Positions 2,292 through 56,515 of a DNA stretch of 64,000 nucleotides are shown one piece after another; within the stretch, counting starts at the first letter, position 1; the number at the start of each line of letters is the position of its first letter. Source of the stretch: Candidatus Falkowbacteria bacterium (lineage in GTDB: Bacteria > Patescibacteriota > Patescibacteriia > Patescibacteriales > UBA12465); assembly GCA_037137655.1 (NCBI GenBank), contig JBAXJX010000001.1, forward strand, positions 417,624 through 481,623, in the 5' to 3' direction. The notes below the pieces were generated by a model. The model made no database searches. It was not told where the DNA came from and saw only the letters and a program-made list of their open reading frames with translations. The translations under genes and the position numbers were made by a program.

Positions 2292-3596
2292 TTAAGGGAA
2301 TAAACGATTTGGACCACGATACAAATATGTAACCTCTCTCACGTTTTTTAATCCCAGCAGCAACATCAGCATTCTAGTTAGACCAAAACCAAATCCTCCA
2401 TGCGGTGGAACACCATATCGGAAAAAATCCAAATAGAACCCAATAGACTCTAGCGGAATTTTTTTCTCCACAGCTTGAGCTGAAAGAATCTCAACTCTAT
2501 GCTCCCTTTGGGCGCCAGTGGTAACTTCTAAACCTTTAAATAAAAGGTCAAAGCTTTTGGTTGTACCATCAGCGTTTCTCATATGGTAAAAAGGTCGAAT
2601 ACTTTTTGGATAGCCAGTTACAAACATAAATTCATGATTTAAATTTGTCTTGACATATTCATACAATATTCTTTCACCATCAGGATCAAGCTCACCTTCG
2701 TATTCTAGTGGAATTACATGACCAGTAGCTTTAACAATTTCCAGAGCTTCTTTCATATCAATCCTTGGAAATGGCAAAGATGGAACAATAATTTCAACGC
2801 CAAATACTTCTTTAATAGTATCACCTAACTGAATTTTAATTTTTTCCATTGTATATGCAAGCCAAGACTCTTCAAGTGCCATCACATCTTCATGTGACTC
2901 TACCCAAGATATTTCAGCATCTATACTAGTAAATTCAGTATCATGTCTTGATGTAAATGAGGGATTAGCTCTAAAAACTGGACCAATCTCAAACACTTTA
3001 TCAAACCCAGCGGCCATAGCCATCTGCTTGTAGAATTGTGGACTTTGGGCTAAATATGCCGTTGTGTTAAAATACTTAACAGAAAATAATTCAGCACCAG
3101 ATTCACTAGCGGCTCCGATAATTTTTGGCGAGTGTATTTCTATAAATTTATTATTTATAAAATATTCTCTCATTGCCATTTCCATCAGAGTTTGCATTCT
3201 AAATATTAATAAGTTTTTAGGCTTTCTTAAATCTAGAAAACGCCAGTCCAATCTATCCTGTAAAACAGCTGTATCATCTATTGGCAACGGCTTAGCCGAT
3301 ATAGACAGAATATTTATAGAGCTTGGGATAATTTCATAACCATTTAGCTTTACATAAGTATTGCTATTTAATATCCCGCAGACTTCTATAACTGATTCTG
3401 GGGTTAGACTCTTAATTAAAGACAATAAATAATTATTCTCTTCAATCTTTTGAACAAAAATCTGAACTTTTGCGTCACAATCTCTCATGACCATAAAAAT
3501 TGCATTTTTTTGATCACGAATACTATCCACAAATCCACGCACAAGAACTTCACTTCCGACCACGGAACTAAGTTCATTAATTTCAGTTTTTTTCAT
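2292..3596 (-). CDS. aspS: class IIb aminoacyl-tRNA synthetase, archaeal-type aspartyl-tRNA synthetase-like
   Basis: N-terminal OB anticodon-binding domain, motif 2 FRANPSFTSRHDTEF, motif 3 GGFGFGLTRMLMLLLGLKNVREV, C-terminal RLFP; start at internal MKKTEINEL (ATG 3596). Confidence 0.7.
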   Translation of the reverse strand: MKKTEINELSSVVGSEVLVRGFVDSIRDQKNAIFMVMRDCDAKVQIFVQKIEENNYLLSLIKSLTPESVIEVCGILNSNTYVKLNGYEIIPSSINILSISAKPLPIDDTAVLQDRLDWRFLDLRKPKNLLIFRMQTLMEMAMREYFINNKFIEIHSPKIIGAASESGAELFSVKYFNTTAYLAQSPQFYKQMAMAAGFDKVFEIGPVFRANPSFTSRHDTEFTSIDAEISWVESHEDVMALEESWLAYTMEKIKIQLGDTIKEVFGVEIIVPSLPFPRIDMKEALEIVKATGHVIPLEYEGELDPDGERILYEYVKTNLNHEFMFVTGYPKSIRPFYHMRNADGTTKSFDLLFKGLEVTTGAQREHRVEILSAQAVEKKIPLESIGFYLDFFRYGVPPHGGFGFGLTRMLMLLLGLKNVREVTYLYRGPNRLFP

Positions 3597-3619
3597 GATT
3601 AAAAAAATTAGGTTAAAAA

Positions 3620-4942
3620 CTAAGGCATAATATTTCGTCTTACAACTCTTGGATAAGGGATGCAATCACGAACATGAGGAATGTTTAATAGCCAGCGCAT
3701 AAGCCTTTCTAGGCCCATACCAAAAGCTATATGAGGAACAGAACCAAATTGATGAACATCTTTAACAAATCCGTAAATTGGATCATTTTCTTTATTTTTT
3801 TCAGACATTCTCTCTTTAAGCATTACAAAATCACTTATTTTTTCAGCAACGCCAAGTAACTCGCCATAACCATTATTAGCTATAAGATCAGCAACCATTG
3901 TTAATTCGGTGTCATTTTGATCGATGCAGTAAGGAAATGGTTCAATCTTTCTTGGTATCCCAACTATCCAAAAAGGACTGTCGTAATTTTTAGAAAGAAA
4001 TTCCTCTTCCTCACTACCAAGACCAACGCCAAAATCAATATCAAATCCACCATCTTTTAGTAGATTTATCGCGTCACGATAATCTAATCTTGGAAATGGC
4101 ACATTCAAACCAGATAAAGTTAACTCCTTGCCGATAATTGAAATTAAATCTTTTGATTTTTTTTCCAACTCTTTCGTAACATAAGAAATAACATCTTCTA
4201 CAATACGAATTATATCTTCACGATCACCCCAAGCTAGTTCGGCTTTAATGTGCCAATACTCAATTAAGTGACGTTTACTTCGGGACTCCTCACCTCTAAA
4301 GCTCGGGCCCATATTGTAAACTTTTTCGAAAGCATGCACTGACGCCTCCAAATAAAAACCAGCGCACTGTGACAAATAGACATCCTCTTTACGAATCTTA
4401 ACTCCAATGGCCGTAGAACCATCATACAATGGCGCTGGAACCAAAATCGGAGCATCTATCTCCGTATAACCATTTTGCTCGAACCATCCCTGTAAAATAT
4501 TTTTTAACAGATTGCGGAATCTTAGAATGGCCATAACTTTAGGATTACGAATATATAAATGACGATATCGCAACAAATTATCAGTTAAGCTTTCGTCAAA
4601 AATATCAATATCGCTATGTGGAGATGGTGAAATTTCAATATCAACATTACCGATCAAAGTAACGTCCGACACTATAACTTCCAAAGATCCATCTTTTGCG
4701 CTGGGAGTTAACACCCCAAAAATCGAAACGGCTGACTCAATTCTAAGCGCCGAAGACAAACTAAAACAATTTTGTGACACCAGGTCACGATTAATTACAA
4801 CTTGAACGACACCAGTGGAATCACAAACATCAAGAAAAATAGTTTTCTTATGCATTCTCTTTCCAGTGACCCATCCCAACACTTCCAACTTTTGACCAAT
4901 CAACTTTTGATCACTCAAAGAATTAATAAACAAACCTTTCAT
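3620..4942 (-). CDS. asnS: class IIb aminoacyl-tRNA synthetase, asparaginyl-tRNA synthetase-like
   Basis: N-terminal LEVLGWVTGKRMHKKTIFLDVCDSTGVVQVVINRD resembles AsnRS OB domain; motif 2 FRGEESRSKRHLIEYWHIKAE, motif 3 AFGMGLERLMRWLLNIPHVRDCIPYPR. Confidence 0.65.
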   Translation of the reverse strand: MKGLFINSLSDQKLIGQKLEVLGWVTGKRMHKKTIFLDVCDSTGVVQVVINRDLVSQNCFSLSSALRIESAVSIFGVLTPSAKDGSLEVIVSDVTLIGNVDIEISPSPHSDIDIFDESLTDNLLRYRHLYIRNPKVMAILRFRNLLKNILQGWFEQNGYTEIDAPILVPAPLYDGSTAIGVKIRKEDVYLSQCAGFYLEASVHAFEKVYNMGPSFRGEESRSKRHLIEYWHIKAELAWGDREDIIRIVEDVISYVTKELEKKSKDLISIIGKELTLSGLNVPFPRLDYRDAINLLKDGGFDIDFGVGLGSEEEEFLSKNYDSPFWIVGIPRKIEPFPYCIDQNDTELTMVADLIANNGYGELLGVAEKISDFVMLKERMSEKNKENDPIYGFVKDVHQFGSVPHIAFGMGLERLMRWLLNIPHVRDCIPYPRVVRRNIMP

Positions 4943-6189: not shown

Positions 6190-6245
6190 GGGGTGACGGG
6201 AAATAAAAAAGGAGATAAATTAATATCTCCTTTGCACCAACCTGA

Positions 6246-6806
6246 CTATCTTAGTTGTGGTTCCCTGGCTACTAAACCACCGGGCAGCTTTTCTTTTATC
6301 TTGTTTAAGATCTTTTTTACCCAACTAATCTTTGGCGGTTTTGGCGTACACGATCCAAAAAAAATACTGAAAAATCCAAAAATATAAGCTACTATCTGAA
6401 AACCAAATTCCAAAAACTTATATTTATTAACGGCCTCAGATAAAAATAATGAATTGAAGGCACCATAAATAATAAATGGCGTAAGAACAATCGCAAGTAT
6501 TCTCGCAAATGACAAAAAATAAAATCCAAAACCAAGTAAGCCAGTATTATTTGTCCATGATCTTTCTGCGGTTCTTAAAAAAAACCAAAGGTAAAGAAGT
6601 CCTAAAAAAACAAATATAACTCCACTTAGATATACTAACGACATCACCTCATTAATCAAGTGTGCTTTAACGGAGCACATGCGCAAAGTTAATGACACAA
6701 CAATCATTAGTCTGGCCAAGGAAAAACAGTTTATACCAAATAAAAATTGAATCTTATCGGCTATTAATTGAAACTGCCTTAACAAATAATCATCTACCTC
6801 TCTCAT
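6246..6806 (-). CDS. hypothetical integral membrane protein
   Basis: 186-aa ORF with 4-5 hydrophobic segments; no recognisable motif. Confidence 0.5.
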   Translation of the reverse strand: MREVDDYLLRQFQLIADKIQFLFGINCFSLARLMIVVSLTLRMCSVKAHLINEVMSLVYLSGVIFVFLGLLYLWFFLRTAERSWTNNTGLLGFGFYFLSFARILAIVLTPFIIYGAFNSLFLSEAVNKYKFLEFGFQIVAYIFGFFSIFFGSCTPKPPKISWVKKILNKIKEKLPGGLVAREPQLR

Positions 6807-6839: not shown

Positions 6840-7568
6840 TTAAATTTTGTACAACTTTTTAAAGTTTTCAATTTCTATAACGCCTTGTTCGCCAAAATTT
6901 CTACTCTTCTTTACTTCATCAATATTTTTCTCCAATAAACTTCTTAACGTATCAACGTCGGCTCTTATCAAGCAATTTAAAGTTCGAACAGAAAAACCAA
7001 GATCGGACACATTTATATCCATAACATCGTCAATTGTTTTATTGGCAATTAAATTTCCAGCCCTTAATTCATTTAACAATGTAAATTTTAATCTATCGGC
7101 AAAATTTGCGATAGCGGTGTCCCAAGACTTTAATGCGTTATCTAATCCAAACTCCTTGGCAACGTCCTTAACTTTGGCCACACCACCATTATACTCGGTC
7201 TTATAGGCAAATGTTAATAAGGCCACGCGATCCGCCGGCAATCCGGAAAATGCATCTAATATAAATTTGTTAATTTGATCTTCATGAACATTTTCTATCA
7301 ACATGCTCAAACCTGACAGACGACGCTTCACTCTATCAATTAACAATTTCGGTAAATTATGTTTAATGCCATCAAAAGCACTTATCTTAGCCTCGTCAAA
7401 TTTACCAGCGTTAACAGTTAATTTTCCAGAGTTAGAAAAATCACGCAAATCAGGCAAGCTAATTTGATTAGTTAGTTCATATCCGCTAGATTTTAATAAA
7501 TCAGCAACAGCTTTGTTAATATCTTTAAGATCTAAAGAAAAAACGAATTTTCTAGACACGACTTTCAT
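6840..7568 (-). CDS. hypothetical protein with C-terminal RNA polymerase alpha-subunit CTD-like (HhH) domain
   Basis: C-terminal LGFSVRTLNCLIRADVDTLRSLLEKNIDEVKKSRNFGEQGVIEI aligns with E. coli alpha-CTD [23 protein letters not shown]...KTPNLGKKSLTEIKDVL; N-terminal 180 aa unrecognised. Confidence 0.6.
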   Translation of the reverse strand: MKVVSRKFVFSLDLKDINKAVADLLKSSGYELTNQISLPDLRDFSNSGKLTVNAGKFDEAKISAFDGIKHNLPKLLIDRVKRRLSGLSMLIENVHEDQINKFILDAFSGLPADRVALLTFAYKTEYNGGVAKVKDVAKEFGLDNALKSWDTAIANFADRLKFTLLNELRAGNLIANKTIDDVMDINVSDLGFSVRTLNCLIRADVDTLRSLLEKNIDEVKKSRNFGEQGVIEIENFKKLYKI

Positions 7569-16231: not shown

Positions 16232-17368
16232 TTAATACGCACAATAAGCATTTCCTGCCAAGCTATTATTATACATTCCCTGGATTTCCGTCAAGTTTAA
16301 AGCCCGATTAGAAACAGCCACTTCGTCAACAAGGCCACTAAAATAAGTTGTTGCTAAATAACCAGGATAGGCATATCCCTTTCCGATTAAAAGCGAGTTA
16401 GCATTACCAATTGATTTTGCGGAGTAGGCGCCGGTATTTACCAGCACTGAATTTAAATACTGTTTAACATTGGAACCATCATAAGTGACAACAACATGAT
16501 TCCAGATGCCAGAGCCAAAAGCTATGGTAGTGCGCATATTAAGATAAGTGCCATCTGTCCATGATGCTTCAAAGCCAGAACTGTCAGCGCTTGTCGAAGT
16601 ATAAACACAAAAATTTCTCGAAGACGGCGGATAAACAGCTATAGCCTGACAAAATGGTGTCATATAATTAGGATCCGGATAAGAATTTACTTTAACCCAA
16701 AAAGAAAATGTAAATTGTGGATAACTAGTAATGAAATTGCCAAGATCCACATAATCATTAACACCATCAAAACTAAAAGCCTGGCCAACTTTACCGGGCG
16801 CAAATGTTGCGCCATTCATTAGCGTTCCATTGTTAAGGCTATGAGCATCATTAGCATTATTCTCTCCCCGCCAATAAGAAACCATGCCTAGACCAGAACA
16901 ACTAGCTAGCGTACAATCCGTTCCATCATTAATTCCGGCCGGTGTCGCACAATGTGCACCAGAAGTCAGTGCGCCAACCGAACCACCCACACAATACGAA
17001 ATGGAGTATGATGTGCCATTTTGTACTGGTAAATAATAATAAGCGCCATTATTAACACTAGTACATGGTCCGTCGGCTGGAGTTGGCGGCGTTGGAATTA
17101 TCGCCATGTAAGTTGTTGTGCCATTAATCGAAGTTGAATATAATGAACCGGAATTAAATTCATCCGCACTCGGATATCGCTGCTGATCATTAAAAAACAA
17201 TTCCAGTGCAGTCTGAGTTTGTTTCACGTCAGCCACACGCCGCGCGTCCCGCGCTTTTGCGCGAGCGTTTTGTAAGGCCACGACCGCGATGGTGGCTAAA
17301 ATGCCTATAATGGCAATAACAACGAGAAGCTCGATGAGAGTAAACGCACTTCTCTTTTTGTGAGGCAT
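16232..17368 (-). CDS. prepilin-type (type IV pilin/pseudopilin-like) protein with C-terminal LamG/concanavalin-like lectin domain
   Basis: N-terminal KRSAFTLIELLVVIAIIGILATIAV prepilin cleavage/methylation motif (Ala at -1, Glu at +5); C-terminal beta-rich domain resembling LamG. Confidence 0.7.
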   Translation of the reverse strand: MPHKKRSAFTLIELLVVIAIIGILATIAVVALQNARAKARDARRVADVKQTQTALELFFNDQQRYPSADEFNSGSLYSTSINGTTTYMAIIPTPPTPADGPCTSVNNGAYYYLPVQNGTSYSISYCVGGSVGALTSGAHCATPAGINDGTDCTLASCSGLGMVSYWRGENNANDAHSLNNGTLMNGATFAPGKVGQAFSFDGVNDYVDLGNFITSYPQFTFSFWVKVNSYPDPNYMTPFCQAIAVYPPSSRNFCVYTSTSADSSGFEASWTDGTYLNMRTTIAFGSGIWNHVVVTYDGSNVKQYLNSVLVNTGAYSAKSIGNANSLLIGKGYAYPGYLATTYFSGLVDEVAVSNRALNLTEIQGMYNNSLAGNAYCAY

Positions 17369-20824: not shown

Positions 20825-22225
20825 TTAGTAGTCGCGTAATTTTTCTAAACCTTTCAATTTTCTAATCTTCTCTAGAGCCTTCGCTTCAATTTGACGAATA
20901 CGTTCGCGGGTCACTTCAAATTCTTGACCAACTTCTTCTAAGGTGTGCGCCACACCATCAGTTAAACCAAAACGCATTTCCAAAATTCTTTGTTCACGCG
21001 GTGATAAATTAATGATAATTTCTTTCACGTAATCGCGTAACAATTGCAAAGCGGCAACACGATCTGGAGTTTCATTTTTTACATCCTCAATAAAATCTTC
21101 CAAAGTGGAATTATCATCATCATCACCAATAGAAGTTTCGAGTGATATAGTATCTTGTGAAATTTTAATAATGTAACGAACTTTTTCCAACTCTTCACCC
21201 ATTTCTGAAGCCACTTCTTCTGGTAACGGTTCGCGACCTAATTCTTGAATCAAAAATCTTTGCACTTGTTGAAAACGATTAATAGTTTCCACCATGTGCA
21301 CTGGAATACGAATTGTGCGGGATTGATCGGCTAAAGCGCGAGTCACGGCTTGGCGAATCCACCAAGTAGCGTAAGTTGAAAATTTATAACCTTTGCGATA
21401 TTCAAATTTTTCCACCGCGCGGAACAAACCAATATTTCCCTCTTGAATAAGATCGAGTAAACCTAAACCTTTGGCGCTGGCAAATTTCTTTGCAATCGAT
21501 ACCACCAAACGCAAATTAGCTTCAATGATAGCACGTTCCGCTTCGCGATCGCCCCGTTCTTTTCGTTTTGATAATTCAATTTCTTCTTCGGATGTTAACA
21601 ATGGAATTTTACCAATTTCTTTCAAATACATCTGGATGGAATCGGCACTTAACTTGGATAAATCAATACCCATGCTTGGCGCTTTTTTAACTACCACGTC
21701 TTCAGTTTTACCTAAAATATGACCGGCATCTTCAATAATCTTAATACCAGCTTCATGCAAACGACCTAAAAAAATATCGTAATCATAAACACAATCTTCT
21801 ACATGCGGAAATAAATATAATAATTCAGTCTCAGTAACAAAGCCACGCAAACGAGCCTTGTTAATCATCGAAACTAATCTCTCTTCAGTTGGTGGTGGCG
21901 TTGCTTCATGTGAAGCGATACGACGCGGAACAGTTTTAACTTCTTCCACCTCTTTAGCTTTTTCTTTTTTCGCCGGTGCCTTTGGCATCACCTTCTTCAC
22001 GGCCGCTTTTGGGGCAACCGGATGAACAACTTTAGCCAAAACTTTTTTAATAATTTTAGCAACTGGTTTTTTAATTATTTTCTGTTCAGTTTTTTTTATC
22101 ATTTTTTTCGGAGCAATCTTTGCTTTAGTTTTGACCTTAACCGGAGCCGGTTTTTTAGCCACTTTCTTAGGCGCCATCTTTGGCGTTTTTTTGATTATTT
22201 TTTTGTTTACTTGTTTGGCGCTCAT
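20825..22225 (-). CDS. rpoD: RNA polymerase sigma-70 factor RpoD with Lys/Ala/Pro-rich N-terminal extension
   Basis: Region 2 [55 protein letters not shown]; region 4 [25 protein letters not shown]; N-terminal [19 protein letters not shown] repeats. Confidence 0.9.
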
Positions 22226-48053: not shown

Positions 48054-49367
48054 CTATTTTGTCACATTATATAAATTATTAACTTCAGAATCAGATAAAG
48101 ATCTGTTATAAATTTCTAATTCACCGATTTTTCCGCTAAATGTTTGTGCTGCGGTCGCACCGGGACGACGACGACCGATTTCTAAATTAAGATTATTTAA
48201 GATCGGAGATGTTATTGAATTTGAATTATCAGTTAAAACACCATCAATATAAATTTTAGCATTAGTAGAGGCACCGTTTAGCACGACAACAATGTTATGC
48301 CAAGTGCTTAAAGGGATGGTAATACCTGACGTTAAGACACTCTGATTTGAAACTATATAAGGTTTACCAATATTTGCTGTGCCAGCCAAAATAATTTCCC
48401 AACCACTACCCATTTCATAATATCCTTTATTTACTAATACCGGATAACCACCAGTATTTACAACATCAGCATATATCCAAGTACTTATAGTCATATTAGA
48501 ATAATTAAAAGCGCTAGTGTTGTTTGTGTACAAATAAGTACTACCACCAAAGCTAACGGCTGGCCGACCAGCCACACTCGACATATAGACTGGTTGATAA
48601 CCGCCAGCGTCCTGAATAGCATTATAACCATTACCACTTAAATCATTCCATCCAGTAACATAGTTTCCAGTAGTGGTCGCAACTTGACTAGCAGCATTTA
48701 AATAAAAGACTAAACCGGAAATTGTTGCCGCACCGCCAGTCGCCGCCGCGACACATGTCCCGCCAATACAATAAGTTCCGCTAGCACAATTAGCGTTACG
48801 AGAACAATAAGTCCCACCAATACAAGCATTTTGCGCAAAAGTTCCATCACAGCCCTGACAACATGGCAAAGCGGCATTTGTACAAGAACAACCACCAGCA
48901 GCTAACAAAATAGAATTACCAGAACCAATGTAAGATATTCCAATTGGTGAAGCGGCATTTACGCCAGCACGAGTTGTGCCAGTCGGGCCACCCAAGCAAA
49001 AAGATAAGGAATATGTTGCGCCATCATTAGAAGTATAAGTGTAATTATTATCTGCGGTGGCACAAGTATTATCATTAGGAGTTGGGGCAACTGGGATTTT
49101 AGCCATATAAGTGGTGGTACCATTAGTGGTAGTGGAAAAAATTGATCCAGCATTAAATTCGGCGGTAGTTGGATATCTTTGTTGATCATTAAAAAATAAT
49201 TCCAGCGCTGTTTGCACTTGTTTCACGTCAGCAATACGCCGTGCGTCACGGGCTTTGGCTCGGGCATTTTGTAAAGCGACCACGGCGATGGTGGCTAAGA
49301 TACCGATGATAGCAATGACAACTAAAAGTTCAATTAAGGTAAAACCACTTCTCTTTTTATAAATCAT
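48054..49367 (-). CDS. prepilin-type protein (pseudopilin-like) with Cys-rich linker and C-terminal LamG/concanavalin-like domain
   Basis: KKRSGFTLIELLVVIAIIGILATIAVVALQNARAKARDARR; start at internal MIYKKRSG (ATG 49367); C-terminal domain ends GELEIYNRSLSDSEVNNLYN. Confidence 0.75.
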   Translation of the reverse strand: MIYKKRSGFTLIELLVVIAIIGILATIAVVALQNARAKARDARRIADVKQVQTALELFFNDQQRYPTTAEFNAGSIFSTTTNGTTTYMAKIPVAPTPNDNTCATADNNYTYTSNDGATYSLSFCLGGPTGTTRAGVNAASPIGISYIGSGNSILLAAGGCSCTNAALPCCQGCDGTFAQNACIGGTYCSRNANCASGTYCIGGTCVAAATGGAATISGLVFYLNAASQVATTTGNYVTGWNDLSGNGYNAIQDAGGYQPVYMSSVAGRPAVSFGGSTYLYTNNTSAFNYSNMTISTWIYADVVNTGGYPVLVNKGYYEMGSGWEIILAGTANIGKPYIVSNQSVLTSGITIPLSTWHNIVVVLNGASTNAKIYIDGVLTDNSNSITSPILNNLNLEIGRRRPGATAAQTFSGKIGELEIYNRSLSDSEVNNLYNVTK

Positions 49368-49387
49368 AATATATTTAAATTTTAAAA

Positions 49388-51061
49388 TTAATCTTGAATA
49401 CAGCGAACCGCAGCACCTATAAAACGCCAATCAGCATTAGGAAAACTTAAAACACCACTAGAATAAGAAAATCTCATAAACCAAATTCTAATAGAGTCAA
49501 CTGGATTAGCCGCCATAATCATAGTCATAGTTCCTAAACTATCATAACCACCATTACGATTTCGACCAGCCGGCAAAGCTGTAAAACCAGAAGAGTTATC
49601 GGCGATATTTGTAGCTGCCCAATGAACAGTTCCCGCTTCTTTTAAATGTCCGCCAGCAACTTGAGAGGTGCCTAAATAATTAACCATGGTATTCATCTCT
49701 TGCTCTGATGGAACGTGCCAACCACTCGGACAAATACCTTGAATTTTATGAGTAGCTGGATCTGGGAAATCACACCCAACTTGATCAGTCGAGACACAAT
49801 TACCATTATTAGGCGCACCAGAACAATCATAGGCGCCGACACCATAATTATAAGTAGCCGCATCGCAATTAACAGGTAGCCTCATAACATTAGCCCATTC
49901 ATAAAGACCGCCATAGATTGCACAATTAGCACTATTATTTCCATAACAAAACTTTTGAATAGTGGAGGTTGAGGTTTGACAATACCACCAACCACTTTGG
50001 TTAACACAAGGCGCTGAACTACCGCTATTAATCATAGTTCCAACATTTAAATTCTCCTTTAGCCAGCATTGCGTCCCAATTAACACGGTGTGATATTTTC
50101 CAGCATCCGGGCCACCATCATAAGTAACTTCATCAGTGCCACAAGTAAAACAATTATTACTAATACAATTTTGTCCTGAACCACATGAACCACAGCTAAT
50201 TGTAGCGCCACAATTATCGGTCGTTGTACCACAAGTTTTTCCACTACAACTAGTAACTGGATTGGAAGTACAACCGCACTGCGCGACATTACCGCCACCA
50301 CCACAAGTTTGCGGGGCACTGCATTGAACATGGCTCGGATTATTAACGGTGCCGCCACAACCATCACTTAAAGAAGCACGACAATCACTTGGATCAGCCG
50401 AGGCCGGACTGCAACAAGAATTATTGTAACAAACTTGGGCACCAGAACAATCGACGCCATTACAACTAACACATTGACCGGAATTAGCACTGCAAGTAAA
50501 TGTTCCGGTGCATGCGAGTGGACTCGGATTAGTTAAAGTTAAACCACAATTATTATTATAAGTCGCTCGACAATCACTACCTGGAGCGGCCGTTGGCACG
50601 CAAAGACAACCATTGCCATTGTCAATTCCAGCTGGAGTCGCACAATGCAAACCGGAAATCATGCCACCAACCGAGCCACCGACACAATATTTTATTGAAT
50701 AGGATGTACCATCTATACTTGGCGCGTAAACATAAGAATTATTATCAAAATTAGTACACGCGCCGTCAGCTGGCGCCGGTGGCGTGGGAATGATAGCCAT
50801 GTAAGTAGTTGTGCCTTGGGTGGAAGTGGAAAAGATTTGACCAGAAGAAAATTCCGCCGCGCTTGGATAGCGTTGTTTATCATTGAAAAATAATTCTAAA
50901 GCCGTTTGAGTTTGTTTCACATCTGCGACACGACGAGCGTCACGCGCTTTAGCGCGAGCATTTTGTAAAGCGACAACTGCGATGGTGGCTAAGATGCCAA
51001 TAATGGCAATGACAACTAAAAGTTCGATTAAGGTAAAACCACTTCTCTTTTTACGAAACAT
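49388..51061 (-). CDS. prepilin-type protein with large Cys-rich region and C-terminal Fibrobacter-succinogenes-major-paralogous (FISUMP, TIGR02145-like) domain
   Basis: MFRKKRSGFTLIELLVVIAIIGILATIAVVALQNARAKARDARR; >40 Cys in central region; C-terminal GTQCWLKENLNVGTMI...GWHVPSEQEM...RCIQD. Confidence 0.75.
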   Translation of the reverse strand: MFRKKRSGFTLIELLVVIAIIGILATIAVVALQNARAKARDARRVADVKQTQTALELFFNDKQRYPSAAEFSSGQIFSTSTQGTTTYMAIIPTPPAPADGACTNFDNNSYVYAPSIDGTSYSIKYCVGGSVGGMISGLHCATPAGIDNGNGCLCVPTAAPGSDCRATYNNNCGLTLTNPSPLACTGTFTCSANSGQCVSCNGVDCSGAQVCYNNSCCSPASADPSDCRASLSDGCGGTVNNPSHVQCSAPQTCGGGGNVAQCGCTSNPVTSCSGKTCGTTTDNCGATISCGSCGSGQNCISNNCFTCGTDEVTYDGGPDAGKYHTVLIGTQCWLKENLNVGTMINSGSSAPCVNQSGWWYCQTSTSTIQKFCYGNNSANCAIYGGLYEWANVMRLPVNCDAATYNYGVGAYDCSGAPNNGNCVSTDQVGCDFPDPATHKIQGICPSGWHVPSEQEMNTMVNYLGTSQVAGGHLKEAGTVHWAATNIADNSSGFTALPAGRNRNGGYDSLGTMTMIMAANPVDSIRIWFMRFSYSSGVLSFPNADWRFIGAAVRCIQD

Positions 51062-53555: not shown

Positions 53556-54692
53556 TTAATTTTGAATACAACGGACAGAAAAACCATTGCAAGTACTAGG
53601 AGTATCACGCCATATACCAGCAACACCTGATAAAGATCTCGTATAACCAGCTGACGACCACCATTCACCCACATTATTAAATGCAAAGTATAAATTATTG
53701 CCTTCATCAGGGCAATAATAATATCCAGCTAAAATCCCGTCAAAACCGGATGATCCACCAGTCTTTAGTTTTGTCCCAGCCGAAACACAATCATCGTAAC
53801 TACGATTAGCTACACAAGTTTGACCATTGTCTTTTAAATAGTTTTCTAAAACTGAAAAATCTGAATCTAATGGTAAATGCCAACCATTTGGACAAATATC
53901 TTTAGCTCCAGCGTATTGCGCTGCTTCGTCATATTGATATAAACCACCATAAGTTTGACAACTAGACGTGCTATCGCCATAACAATATTTTTCCATAACG
54001 CCATTATTGGTTTGGGATACAGCACCGGTAGTAACGCCAACAACATAGTGACCAACGTTTAAATTTTGCTTTATCCAACATTGAGTACCAATACTAACCG
54101 TATCATAAGTGCAGGTGTCATAATCCGGTGCTCCAGTATTGCAAACATGATTAAGGGTTGATGTTACCACTACTTGAGATTGCAGGCAAACGGAAGCCGG
54201 CACACTACTAGTTACCGCCACAATTCCCTTTGGTGTTAAAATATTATTACCGGCAGCAAATTTATCAACTTGAGAACCAAGACAAAATGATAAAGAATAA
54301 GTATTGGTGGTGGTGCCTGGTGTATAAACATAAGCATTACTAGAAGAACTACAAGAACCATCCGGTGGTGTTGGCGCATTAGGAATAGTGGCTAGATAAG
54401 CCACACCGTTTGGCGAAACTATTTTCCCAGATGACCATTGAGTTGATGAAGGATAAATGCCGTTATCAGTTATATATAATTCTAGAGCTTTTTTAATTTG
54501 AGTGACTTGAGACAAGCGCATAGTATCACGAGCGGAAGCAAATCTTTGCAATGGATTTAGAGCTACAAAAACTACCGCCGCAATAATAGCGATGATAGCA
54601 ATAACAATTAGGAGTTCGATGAGAGTGAAGAATTTTTTACTTTTTTTTCGACACTTTTTTAATTTAGAATTTATTTTAGGGAAAAAGTTCAT
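53556..54692 (-). CDS. prepilin-type protein with C-terminal FISUMP domain; Phe instead of Gly at -1
   Basis: MNFFPKINSKLKKCRKKSKKFFTLIELLIVIAIIAIIAAV; VSIGTQCWIKQNLNVGHYV...GWHLPLDSDF...RCIQN; start ATG 54692 consistent with promoter at 54734-54762. Confidence 0.7.
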   Translation of the reverse strand: MNFFPKINSKLKKCRKKSKKFFTLIELLIVIAIIAIIAAVVFVALNPLQRFASARDTMRLSQVTQIKKALELYITDNGIYPSSTQWSSGKIVSPNGVAYLATIPNAPTPPDGSCSSSSNAYVYTPGTTTNTYSLSFCLGSQVDKFAAGNNILTPKGIVAVTSSVPASVCLQSQVVVTSTLNHVCNTGAPDYDTCTYDTVSIGTQCWIKQNLNVGHYVVGVTTGAVSQTNNGVMEKYCYGDSTSSCQTYGGLYQYDEAAQYAGAKDICPNGWHLPLDSDFSVLENYLKDNGQTCVANRSYDDCVSAGTKLKTGGSSGFDGILAGYYYCPDEGNNLYFAFNNVGEWWSSAGYTRSLSGVAGIWRDTPSTCNGFSVRCIQN

Positions 54693-54733
54693 AAATAATA
54701 ACAATAATAAGCAAAACATCAACCAACGCAACT

Positions 54734-55381: not shown

Positions 55382-56515
55382 TCAATCATGAATACAGCGA
55401 ACGGAATAACCATAAGAATTATTATCATTAGTTCTTAAGATGTAGTGACCAGTCTCAACCCATGTGCCCTCATCATCATAGCCACCAATCAATTCAATCA
55501 GTCTATCCCATGCTCTTGTACCACTAATAACTGTAGAGGACCAAAACTGGCTATTATTACCAAAGTAAGTAAATCCAGATGAAGCCCCAATTTTAACCCC
55601 AGAAAGTAAAGCATTGAATAATAATGGATCTTGATATTGAATACCAGCACCATAGCAATCCCAAGTATTTCGATTAGGGTTACAAGTTTGGCCCACGGTT
55701 TTTAAATACTGATCTAAAGTATTTTGTTCAGAATCACTTGGGATATGCCAACCGGTCGGACAAACACCTTGAGCGCTTTCAGTGACAGAGTATTGCATTG
55801 CTTCACCCCATGAATATAAACCACCATGAATATCACAATTACTAGTGATATTATTATAACAATATTTCTCTACAATACCATTGTTTGAAACAACATTATC
55901 ACTAGATGATGCAATAACCATTGTGCCAATGTTTAAGTTATCTTTAAACCAGCACTGCGAACCAATTTGCACGGTGCGATAATAGCCACCTTGATTACGA
56001 CTTGATCCGCTAAGATCATATGGTCCACCAGCATAAGCTATCGTACTCCCACAAGCAAAAGACGAGGATGTCGCCACTACACTAACAATCCCGGTTGGTG
56101 TTAAAATATTATTTCCGGCAGAAAATTTATCAACTTGAGAGCCAAGACAAAATGATAAAGAATAAGTATTAGTAGTAGTACTTGGTGTGTAAACATAAGC
56201 ATTACTGGAAGAACTACAAGAACCATCTGGTGGTGTTGGTGCGTTAGGAATAGTAGCCAGATAAGCCACACCATTTGGCGAAACTATTTTACCGGATGAC
56301 CACTGAGTGGGTGAGGGATAAACACTGTTATCCATAATATATAATTCCAGAGCCTTTTTAATTTGGACTACCTGGGAAAGACGCATGGTATCACGAGAAG
56401 AAGAAAAACGTTGAAGTGGATTTAAGGCCACAAAAACCACCGCCGCAATAATGGCAATGATAGCAATAACAATTAGGAGTTCGATGAGGGTAAATCCGCT
56501 TTTCTTATTTTTCAT
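55382..56515 (-). CDS. prepilin-type protein with C-terminal FISUMP domain
   Basis: MKNKKSGFTLIELLIVIAIIAIIAAVVFV; first ~140 aa ~90% identical (nt level) to 53556..54692; VQIGSQCWFKDNLNIGTMV...GWHIPSDSEQ...RCIHD. Confidence 0.75.
   Translation of the reverse strand: MKNKKSGFTLIELLIVIAIIAIIAAVVFVALNPLQRFSSSRDTMRLSQVVQIKKALELYIMDNSVYPSPTQWSSGKIVSPNGVAYLATIPNAPTPPDGSCSSSSNAYVYTPSTTTNTYSLSFCLGSQVDKFSAGNNILTPTGIVSVVATSSSFACGSTIAYAGGPYDLSGSSRNQGGYYRTVQIGSQCWFKDNLNIGTMVIASSSDNVVSNNGIVEKYCYNNITSNCDIHGGLYSWGEAMQYSVTESAQGVCPTGWHIPSDSEQNTLDQYLKTVGQTCNPNRNTWDCYGAGIQYQDPLLFNALLSGVKIGASSGFTYFGNNSQFWSSTVISGTRAWDRLIELIGGYDDEGTWVETGHYILRTNDNNSYGYSVRCIHD

Follow-up and report, generated by a model that had tools for sequence, protein, structure and literature searches.

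Within a window of 64,000 nucleotides (nt) from a metagenome-assembled genome of Candidatus Falkowbacteria (Patescibacteria; assembly GCA_037137655.1, contig JBAXJX010000001.1, positions 417,624 to 481,623), we examined a gene at 6840..7568 of the minus strand that encodes a protein of 242 amino acids (aa) bearing a C-terminal domain (CTD) of the RNA polymerase (RNAP) alpha subunit, in a genome whose own alpha subunit is made without this domain. Judging from sequence comparisons, we give a probability of about 0.5 to the reading that we are dealing with a lineage-specific accessory transcription factor, one of a class in which region 4 of sigma-70 (sigma4) is joined to alpha-CTD modules. This reading is based on a high-confidence alpha-CTD, a sigma4-like middle domain and a collinear match of the two domains together to cassettes found in other proteins, as well as on kept DNA-contact residues, a stand-alone and variable gene position, fast evolution and a CTD that does not resemble those of RpoA most closely. 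The protein is most likely not an alpha fragment that became detached.

According to textbooks, UP elements and many activators make their contact with the alpha CTD, and a bacterial clade without it must organize promoter recognition and regulation differently. In these genomes the alpha-CTD module survives in another guise, joined to a sigma-region-4-like domain, and the combined unit recurs in other bacteria and in mobile elements without a described function. Should such proteins turn out to bind the polymerase or the DNA upstream of promoters, they would constitute a novel type of transcription factor, with parts taken from the polymerase's own machinery for promoter recognition, and would offer a testable handle on transcription control in bacteria of the candidate phyla radiation (CPR). 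The alpha-CTD domain itself, the annotation of such proteins and, from a single mention, the CTD-less alpha were already known. Three findings appear to be new: that the middle domain is sigma4-like, that there is a family of such proteins, and that the sigma4 + alpha-CTD unit is a recurrent cassette.

Domain organization of the 242-aa protein

The gene starts with ATG and its product is an exact database match to MEI7451970.1, annotated as 'alpha C-terminal domain-containing protein', which lies on one 965,192-bp contig together with the RpoA of this genome (MEI7452037.1). On the minus strand, residues 1-72 (7353..7568) form a small alpha/beta N-terminal domain with an orphan fold, the first ~45 residues of which are conserved in the family. 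Two connecting helices follow (residues 73-95, 7284..7352), with F72, L87 and N93-V94 conserved, and lead to a four-helix helix-turn-helix (HTH) domain like sigma region 4 (residues 96-170, 7059..7283), in which the helices corresponding to region 4.1 are conserved. A short linker (residues 171-178, 7035..7058), comparable to the ~12-residue spacing in the sigma4 + alpha-CTD fusion proteins, connects this domain with the alpha-CTD, a helix-hairpin-helix (HhH) domain (residues 179-242, 6843..7034) that ends in the family motif FKxLYK(L/I).

The CTD was matched by PF03118 (RNA_pol_A_CTD) at residues 179-234 with an E-value of 6.7e-14 and 51.8 bits (Pfam gathering score 23.8), and the claim of an earlier note on this DNA that an alpha-CTD is encoded here by a separate protein was thus borne out. 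The rpoA models of NCBIfam matched the protein through the CTD part only (their C-terminal 60 positions; residues 176-235). Through the CTD alone it reached 41 bits against the equivalog model TIGR02027, the cut-off of which is 227.8, so that it is not an alpha subunit, and neither PF01000 nor PF01193 was found in it by Pfam. A helix-hairpin-helix fold like that of solved alpha CTDs was supported both by a profile search of the PDB and by the predicted fold. The Pfam models HHH_5 and RAD51D_N co-match many alpha-CTD proteins, as would be expected if the 242-aa protein were a non-transcriptional DNA-binding protein, for example a nucleoid-associated protein or an HhH protein of repair or recombination that reuses the fold. 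However, its best sequence and profile matches are specifically the CTDs of RNAP alpha, and the domain next to it is an HTH of the sigma type, which makes a role outside transcription very unlikely.

The likeness of the middle domain to sigma region 4 was found by profile alignment. With a small sigma4 alignment, composed of the window RpoD and of sequences from E. coli and B. subtilis, hhalign returned a probability of 77.6% (P 1.9e-5), and the match was in register from region 4.1 to the first HTH helix. Against the sigma4 parts of natural fusion proteins the probability was 65% (P 6e-5) with the whole domain covered, and the N-terminal domain, used as a control, gave no hhalign match to sigma4. 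When the middle domain and the CTD were taken together and aligned with Sigma70_r4 + alpha-CTD cassettes, the match was collinear, with a probability of 99.5% and an E-value of 4.3e-22 over 141 columns across both domains. What the earlier note had described as an unknown N-terminal domain of 180 aa can therefore be divided: residues ~96-170 are sigma-region-4-like, and residues 1-72 still form an orphan domain. No region-2-like sequence was found in the 242-aa protein.

Sigma4 and alpha-CTD cassettes in other bacteria

An exhaustive single-sequence HMMER search with the protein, run against 1.84 billion representatives, yielded not only full-length relatives but additionally several hundred proteins with only the alpha-CTD in common. 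We scanned 93 of these non-family alpha-CTD proteins against Pfam. PF03118 was present in all 93, and the N-terminal domains of RpoA were absent from their 25 commonest families. TPR repeats occurred in 24 proteins and a clear Sigma70_r4 in 17 (best E 5.8e-24), and many of the 93 had two or three copies of the CTD. About 20 proteins had sigma4 and one to three CTDs, usually in the order sigma4, ~12 residues, CTD, and one of them, P0252, carried the sigma4 + CTD unit twice. The gene for P0210 has ordinary chromosomal neighbours, in a bacterium without genome reduction, and that for P0301 lies in a mobile-element-like region, surrounded by small open reading frames (ORFs), RecU, a primase-like gene and an IS605 transposase. 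We found no description of sigma4 + alpha-CTD proteins in the literature. From these alignments, the 242-aa protein is probably one of a larger, uncharacterised class of proteins in which at least one alpha-CTD module comes directly after sigma region 4.

The alpha-CTD outside RpoA (P0128-P0270) was seen in tandem CTD repeats, in TPR + CTD proteins and in Sigma70_r4 + CTD proteins, and P0271 combines MerR/HTH_17 with a CTD. None of these non-RpoA architectures appears to have been characterised.

The alpha subunit without a CTD

The rpoA gene of the window (58679..59485, minus strand; product MEI7452037.1, Candidatus Falkowbacteria) encodes an alpha subunit of 268 aa with the dimerisation and insert domains only. 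Pfam matched PF01000 and PF01193 and nothing else, full-length alpha models of NCBIfam aligned only up to about position 250 of 320, and the protein passed the TIGR02027 equivalog with 248 bits against the cut-off of 227.8. The stop codon is TAA, and the start of rplQ (L17; 58316..58666, minus strand) lies 12 nt past it, so that a CTD cannot fit between the two genes. No alpha-CTD hidden downstream of rpoA or in another frame was found, and a six-frame search of the whole window returned no second alpha-CTD-like segment besides that at 6840-7568. Because the stops in the window are mostly TAA (67 TAA, 9 TAG and 2 TGA), a recoded stop is of no concern for the short rpoA.

The same was true of the relatives. 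Among the 120 best matches to this RpoA, which came from Falkowbacteria and other Patescibacteria with identities down to 66%, all were 259-286 aa long with PF01000 and PF01193, and none had PF03118. In two further genomes (L101, L103) RpoA has 276 aa and L17 follows within 18 nt. We rejected a truncated or frameshifted rpoA on account of the TAA stop, the position of rplQ and the 120 equally short relatives. The earlier note had stated that the rpoA product lacks the CTD, and this agrees with the domain models and with the orthologs; the artificial truncation with a CTD just downstream, which it had considered as an objection, did not hold. The missing alpha CTD is a natural trait across this Patescibacteria clade and is probably independent of the 242-aa protein. 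The only literature statement that we found on such a loss in Parcubacteria is one sentence in PMC8321222, according to which it "is also present in Parcubacteria", along with Hodgkinia, Tremblaya and Euglena chloroplasts. In the main text of PMC4508563, the source cited there for Parcubacteria, neither RNA polymerase nor the alpha subunit is mentioned.

In place of the CTD, residues 227-268 of the window RpoA (58682..58807, minus strand) form a low-complexity acidic run and then a lysine-rich tail. All 17 RpoA sequences that were aligned share this ending, in which the N-terminal domain (NTD) is followed by a low-complexity acidic stretch and a KKxKKxKK tail, and across the clade the composition of the tail is kept while its sequence is not. 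This tail may give the CTD-less alpha a non-specific contact with DNA or protein.

The absence of exactly this domain from rpoA, and the presence of a genuine alpha-CTD elsewhere whose match to Firmicutes alphas in the PDB profile search extends back into the inter-domain linker, might suggest that an ancestral full-length alpha was split and that the CTD half was kept as a gene, later gaining N-terminal domains. We believe that such a fission is extremely improbable. The gene is neither adjacent to nor syntenic with rpoA and evolves far faster, and the family is sporadic whereas the CTD-less alpha is found clade-wide. The collinear match of the middle domain and CTD points to descent from the cassette class, which is also present in unrelated bacteria. 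In addition, all 18 family members have a CTD that fits a profile of non-RpoA CTDs better than one of RpoA CTDs, by ~12 bits on average, although the non-RpoA set had been chosen for its similarity to the 242-aa protein, which biases the comparison. The earlier note had offered two explanations, a split alpha and a transcription factor that had captured the module. The former is left without support, and the latter fits better.

Conservation and evolutionary rate of the family

The full-length relatives recovered by the HMMER search, a small Patescibacteria family, fall into ~17 clusters at 50% identity, a count that rests on one single-sequence query of a very fast-evolving protein. They are 227-263 aa long and 23-33% identical to the query, and they align with it end to end. 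Word-indexed protein searches scarcely detect the family. A scan of GTDB species representatives with the family motif gave no family member; its matches, all of them non-CPR, were mostly full-length RpoA genes (L007-L010) and one non-RpoA alpha-CTD protein from a metagenome-assembled genome of Lachnospiraceae.

The alignment of 18 members showed a conserved N-terminus, a segment AF..L......L.F.Y.L.K and a C-terminal GFSxRTxNCL...RNFG...EI..FK.LYKL. PF03118 was matched in all 18, and no Pfam domain was detected within the first ~175 residues of any of them. The best conserved parts are the first ~45 residues, the 4.1-like helices and the CTD. We mapped the residues of the CTD by the E. coli alpha sequence and its numbering, in which the DNA-binding 265 determinant comprises R265, N268, C269, G296, K298 and S299. 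The equivalents of G296 and E302 are kept in all 18 members, that of N294 in 17, that of R265 in 16 and those of N268 and C269 in 13 each; the window protein itself keeps R265, N268, C269 and G296. The sigma-contact position 261 is Gly in 14 of the 18 and the activator-contact 287 patch (285-289) is variable, so that neither surface is conserved.

The family evolves rapidly. Between the window protein and relatives, identity was 28-30% where the RpoA of the same genomes were 68-72% identical. In a pair of close genomes the values were 61% for the family protein and 88% for RpoA (94% for its NTD). Within the family protein of this pair, the CTD was the most constrained part with 87% identity, and the middle domain had diverged far more, being the fastest of all.

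Genomic context

The family gene always stands alone. It was found in four different chromosomal contexts, with neighbours that vary from locus to locus (window, L002, L003, L011, L013, L014, L104), and no conserved operon partner was found across independent loci. In the window it is 51 kb from rpoA, and in other genomes 13 and 7 kb from it on the opposite strand. Downstream of it is a gene for a 186-aa membrane protein (6246..6806, minus strand), which is possibly co-transcribed but not a conserved partner, and which is followed by a terminator-like hairpin at 6208-6233. In two related genomes (L099 10001-10771 and L103 10001-10798) the family gene is upstream of and divergent from rpsL and lies between rpsL and the genes for an M50 peptidase and L28; the window has the same rpsL, M50 and L28 arrangement without a family gene there. 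This pair alone shares a downstream gene for a fast-evolving protein of 223 aa, 48% identical, with a signal-peptide-like start.

A tandem pair of genes for class-II aminoacyl-tRNA synthetases (2292-3665 and 3620-4942, with a 46-nt overlap) is conserved in each of the 80 related loci. The two are paralogs of the Asp/Asn type with tRNA_anti-codon and tRNA-synt_2 domains. Synteny ends exactly at the synthetases, and the segment from 5090 to ~11000 has no counterpart beside them in the 80 relatives. It contains the alpha-CTD gene, the 186-aa membrane protein, DUF4342, DUF5652, several ORFs of 70-160 aa and a purC-purE fusion, and its G+C content is 29-34%, a mild dip from the 36% of the window. 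No alpha-CTD of any kind was found in the ~0.9 Mb of these 80 loci, an absence that shows only that the segment is variable. A phage or mobile origin of the window gene was rejected, since neither the gene nor its neighbours matched PHROGs, no family member occurred on viral contigs and the G+C dip was mild. A component of a defence system was rejected as well, with no PADLOC match better than E 0.002.

In each of the three genomes that allowed a check for both, a family member and a CTD-less alpha were present together. These are the window, with the 242-aa gene and the 268-aa RpoA; GCA_049318005.1 (JBMOHE010000002.1), with a family gene and a 276-aa RpoA ~13 kb apart; and an ENA scaffold with both genes within one 20-kb locus. 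Because every known member of the clade is without the alpha CTD, the two are expected to occur together regardless of what the protein does.

Among other genes of the window is that of the primary sigma factor (rpoD-like, 466 aa; 20825..22225, minus strand), which has an intact region 4 (~20828-21007) and served as a genuine sigma4 comparator. Its regions 2-4 look canonical, and where region 1.1 belongs there is a Lys/Ala/Pro-rich N-terminal extension of ~100 residues (21926-22225). Ribosomal protein S11 (60176-60793, 205 aa) also has a long N-terminal extension, which is acidic and rich in lysine. Five genes of the window are type IV pilin-like (16232-17368, 48054-49430, 49388-51061, 53556-54731 and 55382-56515), with an N-terminal GFTLIELL(V/I)VIAIIxILA, and the first ~45 residues of those at 16232-17368 and 49388-51061 are near-identical.

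Possible mode of action

As an accessory transcription factor, the 242-aa protein would bind the minor groove of DNA by its alpha-CTD, through the retained equivalents of R265, N268, C269 and G296, and its adjacent sigma4-like domain would touch neighbouring DNA or a protein partner. A single chain would in this way copy the arrangement of sigma region 4 and alpha-CTD side by side on -35/UP DNA, and the N-terminal domain might supply oligomerisation or partner binding. The sequence comparisons establish the identities of the domains, the family, its distribution and its rates, and they found no link to rpoA, while DNA binding, polymerase binding and a regulatory role are inferred.

Several observations weigh against this reading. 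Neither Sigma70_r4 nor r4_2 of Pfam matched any of the 18 family members at E <= 1, and the hhalign probabilities for the middle domain alone are only moderate. The 'recognition' helix (residues 144-170) has a hydrophobic periodicity only, is unconserved and carries a mean net charge of ~0, and sequence-specific reading of DNA by this helix is therefore doubtful. The backbone-contacting lysines K297/K298 of the alpha CTD are lost in the family: K298 is kept in 3 of 18 members and is Q in the window protein, and position 299 is S or G. The constraint on the family CTD (87% identity, against 94% for the NTD of RpoA) would also fit a polymerase-associated role, as would the co-occurrence in the three genomes. 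The biased choice of the non-RpoA CTD set, and the single query on which the count of family clusters depends, should be counted here too.

Some of these points would be explained if the protein were an alpha-CTD acting in trans, that is, a detachable general factor that docks on the CTD-less polymerase and gives upstream contacts like those to UP elements. The docking surface could be the N-terminal domain or the sigma4-like domain; the latter might, for instance, bind the beta flap in the manner of sigma region 4. The middle domain resembles sigma region 4, whose fold binds the beta flap; the alpha CTD is missing throughout the clade, and all three verified genomes encode both proteins, 51, 13 and 7 kb apart. 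The CTD is the best conserved part of the protein, with R265, N268, C269 and G296 kept, and in two genomes the gene lies beside the rpsL/ribosomal-protein cluster. We nevertheless consider a general factor of this kind unlikely. The co-occurrence is trivial if every genome of the clade is without the CTD. Only ~17 family clusters were detected in the 1.84 billion representatives, none was found among the GTDB species representatives with the motif, and the 0.9 Mb from 80 relatives held no alpha-CTD. The gene has a variable position without an operon link to polymerase genes, and it evolves far faster than core subunits do. The patches at 261 and 287 that would contact sigma and activators are not conserved, the cassette also occurs in bacteria without genome reduction, and the resident sigma, which has an intact region 4 here, normally occupies the beta flap. 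The more specific proposal that small adaptors in CTD-less Patescibacteria dock by a sigma4-like domain, carry a detachable alpha-CTD and supply the upstream-promoter contact in trans seems to us decidedly unlikely. If it were true, activation of the UP-element or class-I type would be an optional, exchangeable and fast-evolving accessory, not built into the enzyme.

The unconserved and neutral recognition helix, beside conserved 4.1-like helices, would also be consistent with a mimic of sigma region 4 that acts on proteins. Such a protein would compete for or bind the beta flap, an anti-sigma-like protein or an activator and thereby modulate the use of sigma, with the alpha-CTD serving as a protein-interaction module. 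The middle domain diverges fastest between close genomes, as is expected of a co-evolving protein interface. However, the alpha-CTD retains its DNA-contact residues and no conserved partner gene adjoins, and there is in our opinion little chance that this explanation is correct.

Comparison with known systems

Compared with the CTD of RpoA (PF03118; E. coli alpha 249-329, B. subtilis), the family domain is the same HhH domain by the hidden Markov model, the PDB profile search and the predicted fold, and the equivalents of R265, N268, C269, N294, G296 and E302 of the E. coli alpha are kept. It differs in that it has no tether to the alpha NTD, evolves much faster than RpoA and stops early in its own FKxLYK motif, and in that neither K297/K298 nor E261 (replaced by Gly in most members) nor the 287 activator patch is conserved.

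The match of the middle domain to sigma-70 region 4 (PF04545/PF08281; for example the sigma4 of M. tuberculosis SigL, PDB 3hug_A) is in register from 4.1 to the first HTH helix, but the family domain has no Pfam match and its recognition helix is unconserved and neutral. Having neither region 2 nor region 3 of sigma-70 factors, the 242-aa protein is not a sigma factor.

The alpha subunit of the window resembles the CTD-less alphas of the insect endosymbionts Hodgkinia and Tremblaya, of Euglena chloroplasts and, by the one-sentence mention, of Parcubacteria in that rpoA codes for the assembly domain only. It differs in bearing a conserved acidic and lysine-rich tail, and the window genome additionally encodes a separate alpha-CTD protein.

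The Sigma70_r4 + alpha-CTD fusions (P0173, P0210, P0252, P0132/P0301) share the order and spacing of the two domains with the family. They have a recognisable Sigma70_r4 and usually two or three copies of the CTD, which the family does not, and they lack the N-terminal domain of the family and occur outside Patescibacteria-like contexts.
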